DNA of 16,675 nucleotides from the IMG/VR virus record IMGVR_UViG_2639762982_000011, one strand, 5' to 3'. Shown piece by piece: positions 760 to 8,116 of this stretch. Position 1 is the stretch's first letter. Each line of letters begins with the position of its first letter. This stretch comes from a virus (taxonomy: Duplodnaviria; Heunggongvirae; Uroviricota; Caudoviricetes). Below the pieces are notes generated by a model. That model had not been told where the DNA came from. It worked only from the letters and a program-made list of their open reading frames with translations, and made no database searches. The position numbers and the translations under genes were made by a program.

Positions 760-1297
760 TGTCGCGCTGAGATATTAATTCCCTTGCTGTTTAACCATTT
801 TTTGTGTGTGCTGGTGAGCGTGTGAAGGCTCAATTTGTTGCCCACCAGTATTTACTATTTCTAAGCTCCACAGTGTCACTTCCGCACAAACAACTTAGCG
901 CGGAATCAGTATTCGGCCCAAGATGTAAAAAGCCAACCTGCGTTATGGTTCGCATTTCCAAATAGTGTTCTGAACGCCCGTGCCGGGCGCGAGATGTGGA
1001 TTAGCGTTCGCGCTATGCTGATATACGGCTTTAGACTTTCCATATTGCTGACAGGCTTTATCTGCGGTTTTTTGCAGGCTATCCAGCCCATACCAGCCAT
1101 CAGACTGGATGCTTACCTTTTCACCGTCATTGTATTGCACCATCGCGAACCCAAACATAGCTATCATCGCACCGACAATACCGCTTTTCCAAAAAGCTCT
1201 AATTAGGTCATTCGTTGCCTAATGTCCGAACTGCTAAAGCATCAAAGTTGCTGTAGAATCACCGCCAATTACTTAAGCCTGAAATAAGTGGAAGAAA

Positions 1298-2854
1298 ATG
1301 ACAAGTATTCAACAACGTGCAGAACTTCATCGCCAGATCTGGCAAATTGCTAACGATGTCAGGGGTTCAGTCGATGGATGGGATTTTAAGCAGTACGTTC
1401 TGGGCGCGCTTTTTTATCGTTTTATCAGCGAAAATTTTTCCAGCTATATGGAAGCCGATGATGACAGCATCTGTTATGCAGCACTGGATGACAGCGTAAT
1501 TACTGATGACATTAAAGACGATGCCATCAAAACCAAAGGCTACTTCATCTACCCAAGCCAGCTTTTCTGCAACGTAGCTGCGAAAGCAAATACCAATGAC
1601 AGACTGAATGCAGATTTAAACAGTATCTTCGTTGCTATCGAAAGTTCTGCTTACGGCTACCCTTCAGAAGCAGACATCAAAGGTTTGTTTGCTGATTTCG
1701 ATACCACCAGTAACCGCCTGGGTAACACCGTTAAAGATAAAAATGCCCGCCTGGCTGCGGTTCTGAAAGGGGTTGAAGGGTTAAAACTTGGTGACTTCAC
1801 CGAACATCAGATTGATCTGTTCGGTGACGCCTATGAGTTCCTGATTTCTAACTATGCCGCGAATGCCGGTAAGTCCGGCGGCGAGTTCTTTACACCGCAG
1901 CACGTCTCTAAGCTGATTGCACAACTGGCTATGCACGGGCAGACCCACGTTAACAAAATCTACGACCCGGCAGCAGGCTCCGGTTCGCTGTTGTTGCAGG
2001 CTAAAAAACAGTTTGATGACCATATCATCGAAGAAGGTTTTTTTGGTCAGGAAATCAACCATACGACCTATAACCTGGCGCGTATGAACATGTTTTTGCA
2101 CAACATCAACTACGACAAGTTTGATATCAAGCTGGGCAATACGCTGACTGAACCACACTTCAGAGATGAAAAACCGTTTGATGCCATCGTTTCTAACCCG
2201 CCGTATTCGGTGAAATGGATTGGCAGCGATGACCCGACGCTGATTAACGATGAACGTTTTGCCCCGGCTGGCGTTCTGGCCCCCAAATCAAAAGCTGACT
2301 TCGCCTTTGTACTACATGCGCTGAACTATCTTTCTGCCAAAGGTCGTGCTGCGATTGTTTGCTTCCCGGGTATTTTTTACCGTGGCGGCGCGGAGCAGAA
2401 AATCCGTCAGTATCTGGTTGATAATAACTATGTCGAAACCGTGATTTCACTGGCACCGAACCTGTTCTTTGGCACCACCATTGCCGTAAACATTCTGGTG
2501 TTGTCTAAACATAAAACAGATACAAAAGTTCAGTTTATTGACGCCAGCGAACTATTCAAAAAAGAGACCAACAACAATATCCTGACCGATGCCCATATCG
2601 AACAGATTATGCAGGTATTTGCCAGCAAGGAAGATGTTGCTCATCTGGCGAAATCAGTCGCGTTTGAGACCGTTGTTGCTAATGACTATAACCTGTCGGT
2701 GAGCAGCTATGTTGAAGCGAAAGATACTCGCGAAATTATCGATATCGCTGAGTTGAATGCAGAGCTGAAAATCACGGTCAGCAAAATCGACCAGTTGCGT
2801 AAAGATATTGATGCGATTGTGGCTGAAATTGAAGGCTGCGAGGTGCAGAAATGA
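1298..2854 (+). CDS. hsdM: Type I restriction-modification DNA methyltransferase subunit HsdM (N6-adenine), type IC family
   Basis: 518-aa ORF. AdoMet-binding motif [10 protein letters not shown] and catalytic NPPYS motif. Stop overlaps the hsdS start (ATGA at 2851..2854). N-terminus [15 protein letters not shown] resembles EcoR124-family HsdM as I recall it. Confidence 0.95.
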
Positions 2855-4107
2855 GCGAGTTGAGTTATCTGGAAAAATTGCTGGATGGGGTTGAGGTTGA
2901 GTGGAAACCCTTGAAGGATGTTTGTGATTTTAAAAATGGATTTGCATTTAAAAGCAGCTTATTTAAAGAAACTGGGTTACCGATAGTTAGAATCACAAAT
3001 ATAGATGGATTTAATGTTGACTTAGATGAGGTGAAATACTTTTCACTAAATGATTACAAGGAAGATTTATCCTCCTTTGAGGTATCTATGGGAAATATAT
3101 TGATTGCAATGTCAGGTGCCACTACAGGAAAAGTGGGAATTTATAAAAAAGGAACAAAATGTTATCTTAACCAACGGGTTGGAAAATTCATACCCAAAGA
3201 AAATATTCTAAACAATAATTATTTATACCATTTTTTATTGTTAAATACAGAGACTATTTATATCCTCGCCGGGGGCGGAGCACAACCGAATCTAAGCTCA
3301 AATGCATTGATGTCAAAACTACTCATCCCAATTCCCTGCCCGGATAATCCGGAAAAATCCCTCGCCATCCAGTCTGAAATCGTTCGGATTCTGGACAAAT
3401 TTACTGCACTTACCGCTGAGCTTACCGCTGAGCTTAACATGCGTAAAAAACAGTACAACTACTATCGCGACCAGTTGCTGAGTTTTAAAGAGGGTGAGGT
3501 TGAGTGGAAGGCATTGGGAGAAGTAGCCAAAATACAACGTGGGGCATCCCCCAGGCCAATTGTTAATTATCTTACTGAACAAGGAAATGGTATCCCATGG
3601 ATTAAAATCGGAGATACTATCCCCGGCTCTAAATACATTGACAAAACCTTACAAAAAATAACTGCAGAGGGTGCCCAAAAATCGCGAATCTTGAACCCCG
3701 GTGATTTCGTCATTTCTAACTCTATGAGCTTTGGCAGACCATATATTTTAAGGATAACCGGAGCTATCCATGATGGATGGGCATCAATCAGCAATTTTGG
3801 TGAAAAATTAAATGCTGATTATCTGTATCACTATCTTTCATCAAAAAAGGTGAAAAATTATTGGGAAAGTAAAATCAATAGCGGGTCGGTCAGTAACTTG
3901 AATGCAGATATTATAAAAACATTACCAGTGCCATTGCCTGATAAACAGAAACAAGAGCGAATATCTGCTCTGCTCGATAAATTCGACACCCTGACCAACT
4001 CCATCACCGAAGGTCTCCCGCGTGAAATCGAGTTGCGCCAGAAACAATACGAGTACTATCGTGACTTACTGTTCAGTTTCCCGAAACCTGAAACTGTCAG
4101 TAATTAA
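2851..4107 (+). CDS. hsdS: Type I restriction-modification specificity subunit HsdS, type IC family, two target-recognition domains
   Basis: 418 aa. Central conserved region ...[33 protein letters not shown] and C-terminal conserved region ...[36 protein letters not shown] separate two variable, AT-rich domains. Translationally coupled to hsdM. Confidence 0.95.
3409..3432. repeat. Two tandem copies of 12-bp unit CTTACCGCTGAG (LTAE-LTAE) in the hsdS central conserved region
   Basis: Direct read: cttaccgctgag cttaccgctgag, in frame with hsdS. This is the repeat whose copy number sets spacer length in EcoR124I versus EcoR124II. Confidence 0.9.
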
Positions 4108-4228
4108 TTGACCATTGCTACCGACCGGACCACCTTAACATCCGGTCTGTATATAGACTATTTTTTACGTGCCGGAAGTCACCCTTAACTCCCTTCCGGC
4201 CCTTGCCAGACGGCACAAAGGATGCGCT
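4108..4228 (+). promoter_or_regulatory. hsdS-hsdR intergenic region; possible independent hsdR promoter and hairpin
   Basis: 121-bp gap. Hairpin ACCGGA...TCCGGT (about 4124..4147) followed by a T-run. Candidate TTAACA-N17-TAGACT. SD AAAGGA before ATG 4229. Weak promoter match. Confidence 0.3.
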
Positions 4229-7200
4229 ATGACTCATCAGACACACACTATTGCTGAATCCAATAACTTTATCGTCCTTGATAAGTACATCAAAGCTGAG
4301 CCAACAGGCGACAGCTACCAGAGCGAATCGGACCTGGAACGTGAACTGATTCAGGACCTGCGGAATCAGGGCTATGAATTTATATCCGTAAAATCTCAGT
4401 CGGCTATGCTGTCCAATGTTCGGGAACAGCTTCAGAGCCTCAATGGTGTGGTGTTTAATGACAGCGAGTGGCGGCGTTTCACGGAGCAGTATCTGGACAA
4501 CCCGAGCGATGGCATTCTGGATAAGACCCGTAAAATCCATATCGACTATATTTGCGACTTTATTTTTGACGACGGGCGTCTTGAGAACATCTATCTGATA
4601 GATAAAAAGAATCTCATGCGCAACAAAGTGCAGATTATCCAGCAGTTTGAACAGGCAGGTTCTCACGCTAACCGTTATGACGTAACTATCCTGGTTAATG
4701 GCTTGCCTCTGGTGCAAATCGAACTGAAAAAGCGCGGCGTGGCGATTCGTGAGGCTTTCAACCAGATACATCGTTACAGTAAAGAGAGTTTTAACAGCGA
4801 AAATTCCCTGTTTAAGTATCTGCAACTGTTTGTCATTTCTAACGGCACCGATACCCGTTACTTTGCCAACACCACAAAGCGCGATAAAAATAGTTTTGAC
4901 TTCACCATGAACTGGGCGAAATCAGACAACACGCTGATTAAAGACCTCAAAGATTTTACCGCTACCTTTTTCCAGAAACATACTCTGCTGAATGTTCTGG
5001 TGAACTACAGCGTTTTTGACAGTAGTCAGACGCTACTGGTGATGCGACCGTACCAGATTGCCGCCACCGAGCGCATTCTGTGGAAAATTAAGAGCTCCTT
5101 TACAGCGAAGAACTGGTCAAAACCGGAAAGCGGTGGGTATATCTGGCACACCACGGGTTCCGGTAAAACCCTGACCAGCTTTAAAGCCGCGCGTCTGGCA
5201 ACAGAACTGGACTTTATTGATAAAGTTTTCTTTGTGGTCGACAGGAAAGACCTCGATTACCAGACCATGAAGGAATATCAGCGTTTTTCGCCAGACAGCG
5301 TCAACGGCTCGGAAAATACCGCAGGTCTTAAACGAAATCTGGATAAGGACGATAACAAAATTATCGTCACCACTATTCAGAAACTTAATAACCTGATGAA
5401 AGCAGAAAGCGACCTGCCTGTATACAATCAGCAAGTGGTGTTTATATTTGATGAATGTCACCGCAGCCAGTTTGGAGAAGCACAGAAAAACCTGAAGAAG
5501 AAATTCAAACGCTATTATCAGTTTGGTTTTACCGGCACACCTATTTTCCCGGAAAACGCCTTAGGCTCAGAAACGACCGCCAGCGTATTTGGCCGTGAAT
5601 TGCATTCATATGTTATTACCGATGCGATTCGTGATGAAAAAGTGCTTAAATTCAAGGTGGACTACAACGATGTGCGGCCACAGTTTAAGTCTTTAGAGAC
5701 AGAAACTGACGAGAAAAAACTGAGTGCGGCTGAAAATCAGCAGGCGTTCCTTCATCCCATGCGTATTCAGGAAATTACGCAATATATCCTGAATAACTTC
5801 CGCCAGAAAACCCACCGTACTTTCCCTGGCTCCAAAGGTTTTAATGCCATGCTGGCAGTGAGCAGCGTGGATGCCGCGAAAGCCTATTACGCGACGTTTA
5901 AACGGTTACAAGAGGAAGCCGCTTATAAATCTGCTACCTATAAACCACTACGTGTTGCGACAATCTTCTCCTTTGCCGCTAATGAAGAACAAAATGCCAT
6001 TGGTGAAATTTCCGATGAAACTTTTGATACCAGCGCAATGGACAGCAGTGCTAAAGAGTTTCTCGACGCTGCAATTCGTGAATATAACAGCTATTTTAAA
6101 ACTAACTTCAGTACCGACAGTAACGGTTTTCAGAACTACTATCGTGATTTAGCCCAACGGGTTAAAAATCAGGATATCGATCTGTTAATTGTCGTTGGGA
6201 TGTTTTTAACCGGCTTCGACGCTCCAACATTGAACACGCTATTCGTCGATAAAAACTTGCGTTTTCACGGCCTGATGCAGGCATTCTCCCGCACCAACCG
6301 CATTTATGACGCGACTAAAACCTTCGGTAATATCGTCACGTTCCGGGATCTGGAACGCTCAACCATTGATGCCATAACGCTGTTTGGTGACAAAAATACC
6401 AAAAATGTGGTTTTAGAAAAGAGTTATGCAGAGTATATGGAAGGCTTTACTGATGCTGCCACTGGTGAAGCTAAACGCGGCTTCATGACAGTAGTTTCAG
6501 AACTGGAACAACGGTTCCCTGACCCTACCAGTATTGAAAGTGAAAAAGAGAAGAAAGACTTCGTTAAACTGTTTGGCGAATACCTGCGTGCCGAGAACAT
6601 CCTGCAAAACTATGATGAATTTGCCACGCTAAAAGCCCTGCAACAAATCGATCTTAGCGATCCTGTTGCGGTAGAAAAATTCAAAGCAGAACATTATGTG
6701 GATGATGAAAAGTTCGCTGAATTGCAAACAATTCGTCTCCCTGCTGATCGCAAGATTCAGGATTATCGTTCTGCCTATAACGATATTCGCGACTGGCAGC
6801 GCCGTGAGAAAGAAGCTGAGAAAAAAGAGAAATCAACCACTGACTGGGATGATGTAGTTTTTGAGGTCGATTTGCTGAAGTCTCAGGAAATAAACCTGGA
6901 TTATATCCTTGGACTGATTTTCGAACACAACAGACAAAATAAAGGCAAGGGCGAAATGATCGAAGAGGTCAAACGCTTAATTCGTTCAAGCCTGGGAAAC
7001 CGGGCGAAAGAGGGCCTGGTGGTCGATTTTATTCAGCAAACGAACCTGGATGATTTACCAGACAAAGCCAGTATCATTGAGGCATTCTTTACGTTTGCTC
7101 AACGCGAACAGCAACGTGAAGCAGAAGCATTGATAAAAGAAGAAAACCTCAATGAAGAAGCAGCAAAACGCTATATTCGCACGTCTTTAAAACGCGAATA

Positions 7201-7345
7201 CGCCACCGAAAATGGCACAGAATTAAACGAAACATTACCAAAACTTAGTCCGTTGAATCCGCAATATAAAACGAAAAAACAGGCAGTTTTCCAGAAAATC
7301 GTCTCGTTTATTGAGAAGTTTAAAGGCGTAGGCGGAAAAATATAG
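4229..7345 (+). CDS. hsdR: Type I restriction enzyme endonuclease/helicase subunit HsdR
   Basis: Walker [14 protein letters not shown]-type box FDECHR, nuclease-like D...ELK motif in the N-terminal region (VQIELKK). ATG 4229 has SD AAAGGA about 7 nt upstream; the ORF-track start at 4169 is a GTG without SD. Confidence 0.93.
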
Positions 7346-7361
7346 CCCAATTCGTGTTTTT

Positions 7362-7389
7362 CTTGCGGGTTCTTAATTAAACCCGCAAG
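7362..7389. other. 9-bp stem hairpin just after the hsdR stop (CTTGCGGGT / ACCCGCAAG)
   Basis: Perfect inverted repeat with 10-nt loop. T-run precedes rather than follows the stem on the + strand, so not a canonical terminator. Confidence 0.3.
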
Positions 7390-7424
7390 AGACCGTGGGG
7401 TTCCAAATGGCTAATATACTCCCC

Positions 7425-7511
7425 TTACCCATGCGCAACGATGCCGCCAAAAATGATAGAGAACAGCCAGAAATAGATCGCGGCCATAATGATTTTGAAT
7501 GCCGTGTTCAT
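7425..7511 (-). CDS. Small membrane peptide, 28 aa (MNTAFKIIMAAIYFWLFSIIFGGIVAHG)
   Basis: Hand translation. Strong SD AGGAG about 8 nt upstream of the ATG (rc of 7509..7511). Single hydrophobic helix. Lies downstream of operator-like promoter 7581..7610. Confidence 0.4.
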   Translation of the reverse strand: MNTAFKIIMAAIYFWLFSIIFGGIVAHG

Positions 7512-7539
7512 ATTTTCAGCTCCTGTGATTGATTGGATA

Positions 7540-7570
7540 CATGCCGCGCCTTGCGGCATGTTTTTATTTT
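7540..7570 (+). terminator. Rho-independent terminator-like hairpin (CATGCCGC-GCCTT-GCGGCATG followed by TTTTTATTTT)
   Basis: 8-bp GC-rich stem, 5-nt loop, T-rich tract immediately 3' on the + strand. On the minus strand it sits in the leader of the 28-aa ORF. Confidence 0.5.
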
Positions 7571-7580
7571 CACTTTCTCT

Positions 7581-7610
7581 GTTTTAAAAATCAAGACTTA
7601 TTAGAGCAAT
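7581..7610 (-). promoter_or_regulatory. Operator-like element ATTGCTCTAATAAGTCT (P1 C1-operator-like) fused to a conserved ATTTTTAAAAC element; putative repressor-controlled promoter
   Basis: Minus-strand read ATTGCTCTAATAAGTCTTGATTTTTAAAAC. 13/17 match to the P1 C1 operator consensus ATTGCTCTAATAAATTT as recalled. Same bipartite 30-nt element recurs at 9723..9752 (26/30 identical). TTGCTC-N17-TAAAAC geometry. Confidence 0.5.
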
Positions 7611-8116
7611 TATTGTTGATGGAGAAGCGCGTTTTCATACTCCCTGACCATTAACGTAAGTACGCCGTGACTCCTGAAAACACGCGCCACTTCAATCTTA
7701 TCTTCCAGCGCGAACGCAATTTTACTTAGACCAATTTTCTTCAGGAGATCAATCTTTGCTGGACCGTCATTTCTGTCATCGGTGGCAGGACGCATAGATA
7801 GCAAAGGCTCAGCCCCATTTGTTACGTGCTTACGCAACCAGGCTCGTGTTTTATCCCTGGCTATCTCACAGCGCCCGGTTACAAACCAGAGGGTGTAAAT
7901 GCCGGACAACTGGCGCACCATATCAATAACTGGAGTGATGGGAGCATCAGTGTCACAGGCAAGGTTAAACTCGTTCCAGTGCTCTGTTAATGCACCTTTG
8001 CCAGGTGGTGGAAGTAAATGCAGCCTGTCTTCCGTTGCCTCTGATATCGTCCCATCAATATCTACTATGACGATGTACGGACGTTCCTGGTGTGCGTGTT
8101 TATTGAAAATACTCAA
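7610..8116 (-). CDS. HAD-superfamily phosphatase-like protein (168 aa)
   Basis: N-terminal motif IVIVDIDGTIS (DxDGT, HAD motif I). Start is TTG at 8116 with strong SD GAGGAGG upstream. Substrate not inferable. Confidence 0.7.
   Translation of the reverse strand: MSIFNKHAHQERPYIVIVDIDGTISEATEDRLHLLPPPGKGALTEHWNEFNLACDTDAPITPVIDMVRQLSGIYTLWFVTGRCEIARDKTRAWLRKHVTNGAEPLLSMRPATDDRNDGPAKIDLLKKIGLSKIAFALEDKIEVARVFRSHGVLTLMVREYENALLHQQ

Follow-up and report, generated by a model that had tools for sequence, protein, structure and literature searches.

A small gene, very probably encoding a membrane peptide, at the head of the C1-repressed pmgT operon of P1-like phage-plasmids

The 16,675-nt stretch of DNA analyzed here at its full length (the window; IMG/VR record IMGVR_UViG_2639762982_000011), which its homology identifies as a P1-like phage-plasmid, carries on its minus strand a 28-codon open reading frame (ORF) that in all likelihood is a genuine gene, its product a small membrane peptide. 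By position the small ORF appears to be the first cistron of the C1-repressed early pmgT operon (OpmgT/Op88), a cistron unannotated in the P1 reference. The reading that we consider probable is of a genuine gene, early and repressed by C1, that encodes a single-pass membrane peptide, with an mRNA that begins in a protective 5' hairpin and a translation product whose synthesis ancestrally feeds the next cistron, made monocistronic here through hsd replacement. The original prediction, drawn from the letters of the window alone, had described a 28-residue ORF with AGGAG 8 nt upstream of its ATG, a stable hairpin in its leader and control from a C1 operator; all of these are present, and follow one another in the direction of transcription.

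7594..7610, minus strand: C1 repressor operator ATTGCTCTAATAAGTCT, 15/17 against the C1 consensus ATTGCTCTAATAAATTT; equivalent of P1 OpmgT (former Op88)
7566..7594, minus strand: predicted sigma-70 promoter, with −35 box TTGATT (7594-7589), a 17-nt spacer and −10 box GAAAAT (7571-7566); equivalent of the predicted P1pmgT
7540..7560, minus strand: leader hairpin CATGCCGC-AAGGC-GCGGCATG, with 8-bp stem CATGCCGC/GCGGCATG and 5-nt loop, at the predicted mRNA 5' end
7526..7535, minus strand: unpaired CA-rich spacer CAATCAATCA between hairpin and ribosome-binding site
7520..7524, minus strand: Shine-Dalgarno sequence AGGAG, with an 8-nt spacer to the ATG
7425..7511, minus strand: small ORF MNTAFKIIMAAIYFWLFSIIFGGIVAHG, with ATG at 7511-7509 and TAA at 7427-7425, 28 codons; predicted single-pass membrane peptide

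The 400 bp around the small ORF are 95-100% identical to phages P1, P7, SJ46 and RCS47 and to 874 plasmid records. P1 itself carries the 28-codon ORF, its peptide differing at T20I alone (T20 in P1, I20 in the window), and its reference record annotates nothing as a gene between OpmgT and pmgT. Among 72 P1-type copies, 51 adjoin pmgT, 19 adjoin hsd and 2 lie in other contexts; with one recombinant set aside, they show 8 non-synonymous and 9 synonymous variants, and no nonsense or frameshift variant. P1-type copies vary too little among themselves to settle coding status, and diverged copies were therefore sought: with tblastn, with a profile run against 5.8 billion proteins, by scanning viral contigs for a motif and by looking up contigs. 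Six lineages were found, all in P1-like elements and all with the same layout.

P1 type (window, L001): 28 residues
Salmonella plasmid pCFSAN058588 type (L004, L120): 46 residues
L075 type (L075): 48 residues
Cronobacter phage JK004 (L005): 53 residues
L041 type (L041): 53 residues
L126/L128 type (L126, L128): 53 residues

Comparison of these lineages indicates coding constraint on the small-ORF frame. The ATG and a GGAG in register with it are present, and the reading frame is open, in six of six. Over codons 2-25 the proportion of synonymous differences (pS) is 0.41-1.0, near saturation, and that of non-synonymous differences (pN) is 0.17-0.50, with pN below pS in each of the 15 lineage pairs. 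Variable columns number 20, 9 and 23 at the first, second and third codon positions, the low second-position count being that expected of a hydrophobic coding sequence. The other five frames gather stops in the longer lineages, so that just the sense frame is open in all. M1, K6, A11 and W15 are invariant in eight aligned sequences and two further lineage peptides, and position 13 is Y or F. The small ORF is also present in all 20 P1-like phage records that have PmgS. The two comparative checks proposed in the original prediction, conservation across related elements and the pattern of synonymous against non-synonymous change, are thus both consistent with coding. A chance ORF in a non-coding leader, with just the operator, promoter and hairpin functional, would comport with the missing annotation in the P1 reference genome, and open frames of 28 codons are not uncommon by chance; against retention of frame, start codon and ribosome-binding site in six lineages, a codon-position-specific substitution pattern with pN uniformly below pS, and the stops in the other five frames, such an origin is very improbable.

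Control of the gene can be read from the sequence upstream. The asymmetric 17-bp operator (7610-7594), with 2 mismatches to the consensus, occupies the same position as the annotated P1 OpmgT, which the P1 reference record labels a 'monovalent C1-controlled operator', and is identical to it at 16 of 17 positions, the difference being A-to-G at operator position 14; four C1-operator-like sites occur in the window, where chance would give 0.07. The P1 record also places two predicted sigma-70 promoters, P1pmgT and P2pmgT, across OpmgT. The window operator takes in the final base of the pap stop codon at one end and the initial base of the −35 box at the other, and the −35 box of the alternative P2pmgT lies within it, a layout in which bound C1 would be expected to block RNA polymerase. 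The C1-controlled promoter of the original prediction thus appears to be P1 OpmgT/Op88 with an overlapping promoter. The operator is kept in six of six lineages, and in all six the promoter layout remains readable, with a −35 box TTGATT or TTGTTT, a 17-nt spacer and an A/T-rich −10 box. A simple consensus promoter scan did not flag the −35/−10 pair at 7566-7594. The L126/L128 lineage has the operator variant ATTGTTCTAATAAATAT (L126 2898-2914, L128 1687-1703).

Transcription is predicted to start at ~7559-7560 on the minus strand, placing the leader hairpin (7560-7540) at the very beginning of the message; the first 54 nt of the predicted transcript have a folding energy of −17.2 kcal/mol, in keeping with the stable hairpin originally predicted. 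The hairpin begins 4-8 nt past the −10 box in every one of the six lineages, while its stem sequence differs between them, the P1 type having its own 8-bp stem and a shorter loop. In a covariation analysis of the five lineages outside the P1 type (six sequences, common 7-bp stem), 95% of the possible pairs are formed and four of the seven pairs show compensatory changes on both sides; the stem covariation score is reached by none of 500 shuffles, and slid-register controls are 14-52% paired. The hairpin is therefore real, its structure conserved through compensatory changes. Compensatory changes also separate the hairpins of L126 and L128, with stems GGCGGTCGC/GTGACCGCC against GGCAGTCAC/GTGACTGCC. 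Since it sits at the predicted transcript start, the simplest reading is that it would act as a 5'-terminal protective stem-loop of the mRNA. Stem-loops of the ompA type, reportedly described by Emory, Bouvet and Belasco in 1992, are said to stabilize mRNA in this way; the hairpin resembles them in being GC-rich, in lying within a few nucleotides of the predicted 5' end and in preserving structure rather than sequence, and differs in that its 5' end is predicted from sequence alone. A role as the pap terminator was ruled out, as no sense-strand T-run follows the hairpin in any lineage; a role as a conserved antisense terminator was ruled out, as a T-run occurs only in the P1 type. Between hairpin and ORF, the CA-rich spacer CAATCAATCA is intact in five lineages, the sixth keeping just its last seven bases, CCAATCA, in the alignments; its conservation exceeds that of the coding sequence, and one candidate role for it is translational enhancement, another that of a binding site. 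GGAGC is invariant across all lineages. An Rfam scan of 7250-7750 gave nothing above threshold; a GcvB match of 20 bits was treated as chance, being below the gathering score of 42.

The peptide is predicted to form a single membrane-spanning helix at residues 7-25, where the 19-residue Kyte-Doolittle mean is 2.37 (1.8-2.4 across lineages). An AlphaFold model of a 53-residue homologue has a helix at residues 2-23 with a predicted local distance difference test score of 86-90 and a tail of low confidence. The positive-inside rule suggests that the N-terminus is cytoplasmic and the C-terminus outside, because the lone conserved lysine precedes the helix and acidic tails follow it in the longer forms. 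The length of the C-terminal tail differs among lineages and junction variants, within a range of 0-37 residues; not every lineage's tail can be aligned with the others, and a tail is missing from the P1 type, whose peptide ends 3 residues past the helix with no charged C-terminal domain. In two lineages an A-x-A or V-x-A motif follows the helix, as in a signal peptide; that reading was rejected for the P1 type, whose helix has nothing after it and whose aromatic-rich segment of 19 residues resembles a membrane anchor. Coding constraint and a predicted helix together bear out the small membrane peptide gene of the original prediction. Scans of the 28- and 44-residue forms against Pfam, NCBIfam and PHROGs gave no match, and the family shows no similarity to any known toxin, holin or regulator. 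An exhaustive HMMER profile search of 1.84 billion representative proteins returned 12 at E ≤ 0.001, all but one P1-type relatives, and the family therefore seems confined to P1-like elements of enterobacteria; a match to a repetitive 220-residue protein (E = 9e-4) was judged spurious. A leader-motif scan of a genome-contig collection gave 11 matches in unrelated taxa and no P1-like locus.

Beyond what the original prediction described, in P1 and its relatives the small ORF is the first cistron of a multi-gene operon. The stop of the ORF overlaps the next start as ATGA in three 53-residue lineages and as TGATG in one lineage, and in another lies 4 nt before it (TAAttatATG); in P1 the arrangement is TAA-gggggatgc-ATG, a 9-nt gap containing the ribosome-binding site of pmgT. 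This tight spacing indicates a first cistron in a tightly packed operon. The genes downstream differ, being pmgT in P1 and small winged-helix-like proteins in other lineages; the latter have just weak winged-helix matches and give no functional clue. At 10 min of P1vir infection, RNA-seq gave log fold changes of 9.7, 9.8 and 8.4 for the annotated pmgT, pmgU and pmgV, against ~3-5 for most late genes, the small ORF itself lying outside the quantified genes (PMC8201110 Table S1); this induction fits an early C1-controlled operon. A CRISPR interference screen found pap and pmgT/U/V non-essential, the small ORF being outside the targeted genes (PMC10695390). The corresponding P1 leader (OpmgT (Op88)/PpmgT; NC_005856, 84293-84487) is the same locus, 97% identical in DNA over operator, promoters, hairpin, ribosome-binding site and ORF; it differs in that the ORF is followed, 9 nt on, by pmgT-pmgU-pmgV, where the window has a convergent hsdMSR cassette instead.

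The conserved block ends right after CATGGGTA, at the second base of the stop codon (window 7421-7427), and at least five different, unrelated downstream segments begin at the nucleotide after CATGGGTA.

pmgT
hsd
L098, beginning GTTCGG...
L140 (2582-2590), beginning TTCGAG... and giving a 38-residue product
L141 (2582-2590), beginning CTGGGT... and giving a 65-residue product with a fused DUF551-like tail

Some junction variants thereby add C-terminal extensions of 10-37 residues; stop-loss, frameshift and IS1-insertion variants likewise add tails, one IS1 insertion falling at the same junction point. The helix-coding part is therefore constant, and the tail and downstream genes are exchangeable; the operator-to-ORF module remains intact with at least five different downstream segments, and in the window with none that is co-oriented.

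This architecture raises the question of whether the peptide itself matters. A pure leader ORF would load ribosomes onto the downstream cistron or regulate it, its peptide being functionless and, in the window, a relic left after hsd replacement. Such a role would account for stops that overlap the next start or precede it by 4 nt in five lineages, as well as for the P1 gap with its pmgT ribosome-binding site, for the freely replaceable C-terminal tail, for a peptide that evolves faster than its neighbours and for natural copies disrupted after codon 18-19. It would not require K6, A11, W15, an aromatic residue at position 13 and a full-length helix to be kept at saturating silent divergence, none of which is needed for ribosome delivery; the 19 sampled hsd-adjoining copies, which have no co-oriented downstream gene, nevertheless keep promoter, ribosome-binding site and frame; and no alternative terminator, antiterminator or attenuator structure is seen between the ORF and the next gene. 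On balance a pure leader function is unlikely, and the interpretation as a membrane peptide gene is retained.

Several observations nevertheless weigh against that interpretation. Identity between lineages is 24-56% for the peptide and 69-89% for PmgR, PmgS and Pap, and part of the constraint may be simple hydrophobicity. P1-type copies have diverged too little for selection on the 28-residue form to be proved, and that form could be what truncation has left of a longer ancestral protein. The broken natural copies (L043, P0026, P0028, P0031) mean that the gene is dispensable, at least for plasmid maintenance. A literature search, the sequence and the names Op88 and pmgT included, found no paper that mentions the peptide, two papers that name pmgT and pmgS giving context only, and no ribosome-profiling or proteomic data for the small ORF were found in the literature and data search.

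The original prediction had offered a lysis or host-killing factor as one possible role, and here positive support is lacking. Small single-pass inner-membrane proteins of enterobacteria and their phages include the type I toxins TisB and Hok and the regulators AcrZ, MgtS and MgrB. The small ORF is like this class in size, single hydrophobic helix and tight transcriptional control; it is unlike it in having no sequence similarity and no cis-antisense RNA gene, and in being the first cistron of a phage early operon. A type I-toxin-like peptide or lysis factor would depolarize or permeabilize the inner membrane once C1 repression lifts, and the resemblance to type I toxins and other membrane-damaging peptides, together with expression that should be tightly repressed in the lysogen, is compatible with this. 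An antisense RNA is conceivable as well. Read on the plus strand (7539-7561), the hairpin has TTTTATTTT after it and scores as an intrinsic terminator. Because no canonical terminator parts hsdR from the small ORF, according to a terminator scan of the region, hsdR read-through could cross the ORF antisense and end at this plus-strand hairpin, producing an antisense RNA across the ORF in the window. Just past hsdR, window 7365-7395 holds a 10-bp palindrome, CTTGCGGGTT...AACCCGCAAG, with a T-run upstream of the stem on the plus strand and an A-run downstream on the minus strand, a placement that makes it no canonical terminator in either direction. However, the antisense T-run (TTTTATTTT side) is missing from the five lineages outside the P1 type, so the terminator-like site is specific to P1-type sequences and may be incidental; no promoter-like site is found on the plus strand of 7250-7750; and no Pfam, NCBIfam or PHROG family is matched. 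Nor does the position suit a holin: the gene lies in an early C1-controlled operon and not in a late lysis cassette, with no adjacent lysis genes and away from lydA/lydB (~30.4-31.2 kb) and lyz (~20.3-20.9 kb) in P1 coordinates (PMC8201110 Table S1), and the P1 form has no charged C-terminal domain of the kind typical of holins. A lysis role seems unlikely, and toxin-like or lytic action of either kind is doubtful.

For the membrane peptide gene, we think it most likely that the role is a non-essential early inner-membrane function in which the helix would contact helices of a membrane protein, either the host's or the phage's. A more specific proposal, which is offered tentatively, is that the helix is an effector dedicated to the early lytic phase and targets one particular inner-membrane protein of host or phage, for example in superinfection exclusion or in disarming a membrane-associated defence. 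Operator, hairpin and peptide would then make up a fixed 'expression socket' bordering a cargo hotspot of P1-like phage-plasmids; various gene sets would be inserted behind the helix-coding part, and some of them would give the helix a new tail by fusion.

The sequence of events suggested by this reading is as follows. In the prophage-plasmid state, C1 bound to the 17-bp operator over the −35 box would keep the promoter off, as homology to the annotated P1 operator implies. When C1 is inactivated, or on infection, host sigma-70 RNA polymerase is predicted to start ~7 nt past the −10 box, exactly where the hairpin begins. The resulting 5'-terminal stem-loop, a structure supported by covariation, probably shields the transcript from 5'-end-dependent decay. 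The unpaired CA-rich spacer and strong ribosome-binding site would then drive translation of the 28-residue peptide, in keeping with its coding constraint, and residues 7-25 would span the membrane with K6 on the cytoplasmic side. In the five non-P1-type lineages the layout is such that the ribosome would terminate on the next start or 4 nt before it and so may feed the downstream genes; in P1, pmgT has its own site within the 9-nt gap. In the window, with the downstream genes swapped for the convergent hsdMSR, the promoter would serve the peptide alone.

The surroundings of the gene show how this came about. Homology of the window to P1, which includes pap, operator, leader and ORF, stops at 7421, 4 nt past the small-ORF stop, and picks up again at window 816 with 79% identity.

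7421..7424, minus strand: last bases common with P1, GGGG after the TAA; the replaced segment starts beyond
817..7420, plus strand: replacement segment in place of P1 pmgT-pmgU-pmgV, with hsdM, hsdS and hsdR
1298-2854, plus strand: hsdM of an EcoR124-type (type IC) cassette
2851-4107, plus strand: hsdS of the same EcoR124-type (type IC) cassette
4169-7345, plus strand: hsdR of the same EcoR124-type (type IC) cassette
7610..8116, minus strand: pap, encoding a HAD/polynucleotide-kinase-phosphatase (PNKP)-type phosphatase; upstream neighbour of the small ORF, its stop codon (7612-7610) abutting the operator

The window HsdR is almost identical to that of EcoR124I/II (2288 bits to PDB 2w00). The hsdMSR cassette is convergent with the small ORF, and no co-oriented gene follows the ORF in the window; the gene stands alone there because the cassette took the place of pmgT-pmgU-pmgV. 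Of the two neighbours originally named, hsdR does adjoin the ORF, and the other, called only a phosphatase gene, can be specified as pap. The association with pap is not obligatory: in the lineage of Salmonella plasmid pCFSAN058588 (L004 2835-3141), which has no pap gene, the operator-hairpin-small-ORF module stands directly after pmgS, and the module is therefore not tied to pap. The region from pap or pmgT towards lxr/humD is described as a variable hotspot of P1-like phage-plasmids in two papers. The other C1-operator-like sites in the window lie farther off.

9687-9703, plus strand: C1-operator-like site, paired with the next as P1 OpmgRb/OpmgRa, upstream of pmgR
9736-9752, minus strand: C1-operator-like site, with the preceding one corresponding to P1 OpmgRb and OpmgRa, upstream of pmgR
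13360-13376, plus strand: C1-operator-like site, placed by coordinate conversion between P1 gene 26 and pmgL

Remnants of the ORF are also found outside phage-plasmids. In ~339 plasmid records (PLSDB) the peptide is matched at just 80-90% identity. The one inspected, pMS6192A-NDM (IncF; L003 4001-4081), has lost the promoter, the ribosome-binding site and the first three codons to IS1, leaving a remnant beside hsdR. Listed matches in this identity band share an alignment span of 2-28, which suggests that the other records hold the same relic; the relic itself appears to be P1 DNA that hitch-hiked with a type IC hsd cassette onto non-phage plasmids. The P1 GenBank record notes P1 DNA beside type IC hsd loci (R124/3, EcoDXXI), and its 84399-84482, nearly the whole small ORF, are 98% identical to sequence downstream of hsdR in R124/3; the window differs in showing the junction inside a P1-like element. 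Unlike the 80-90% identical relics flanking hsd on plasmids, of which the inspected one is dead, the copy in the window is intact.

Database annotations of the small ORF disagree, with differing starts and with 'hypothetical' or 'membrane' labels.

Salmonella phage SJ46 gp098 'membrane protein' (L002 1642-1776): 44 residues, from an upstream ATG inside the hairpin
NCBI 'hypothetical protein' P0015: 44 residues in the same reading frame, from an upstream ATG inside the hairpin
Cronobacter phage JK004 gene_94 (L005 3002-3162): internal ATG start, with most of the helix lost

No function or publication is attached to the SJ46 gp098, P0015 and JK004 gene_94 entries. The 44-residue start was ruled out, as it has no ribosome-binding site and lies inside the hairpin at the predicted transcript start; the hairpin ATG is moreover out of frame in the Salmonella type, the one other lineage checked.

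Operator and promoter are thus already known, and what is added is the ORF, which is absent from the P1 reference, present in few database records and in none of the literature found. P1 is both a classic model phage and a widely used tool; resistance and defence genes are common cargo of phage-plasmids like it. The practical gain is modest until a phenotype is found. The small ORF marks the exact left edge of a variable region already known, between pap and lxr, in which the EcoR124-type restriction system and other cargo are exchanged, and it explains why stray P1 DNA accompanies type IC hsdR genes on unrelated plasmids. A conserved, repressor-controlled small membrane protein would be a concrete addition to the P1 gene list, and a candidate for an early membrane-directed function.

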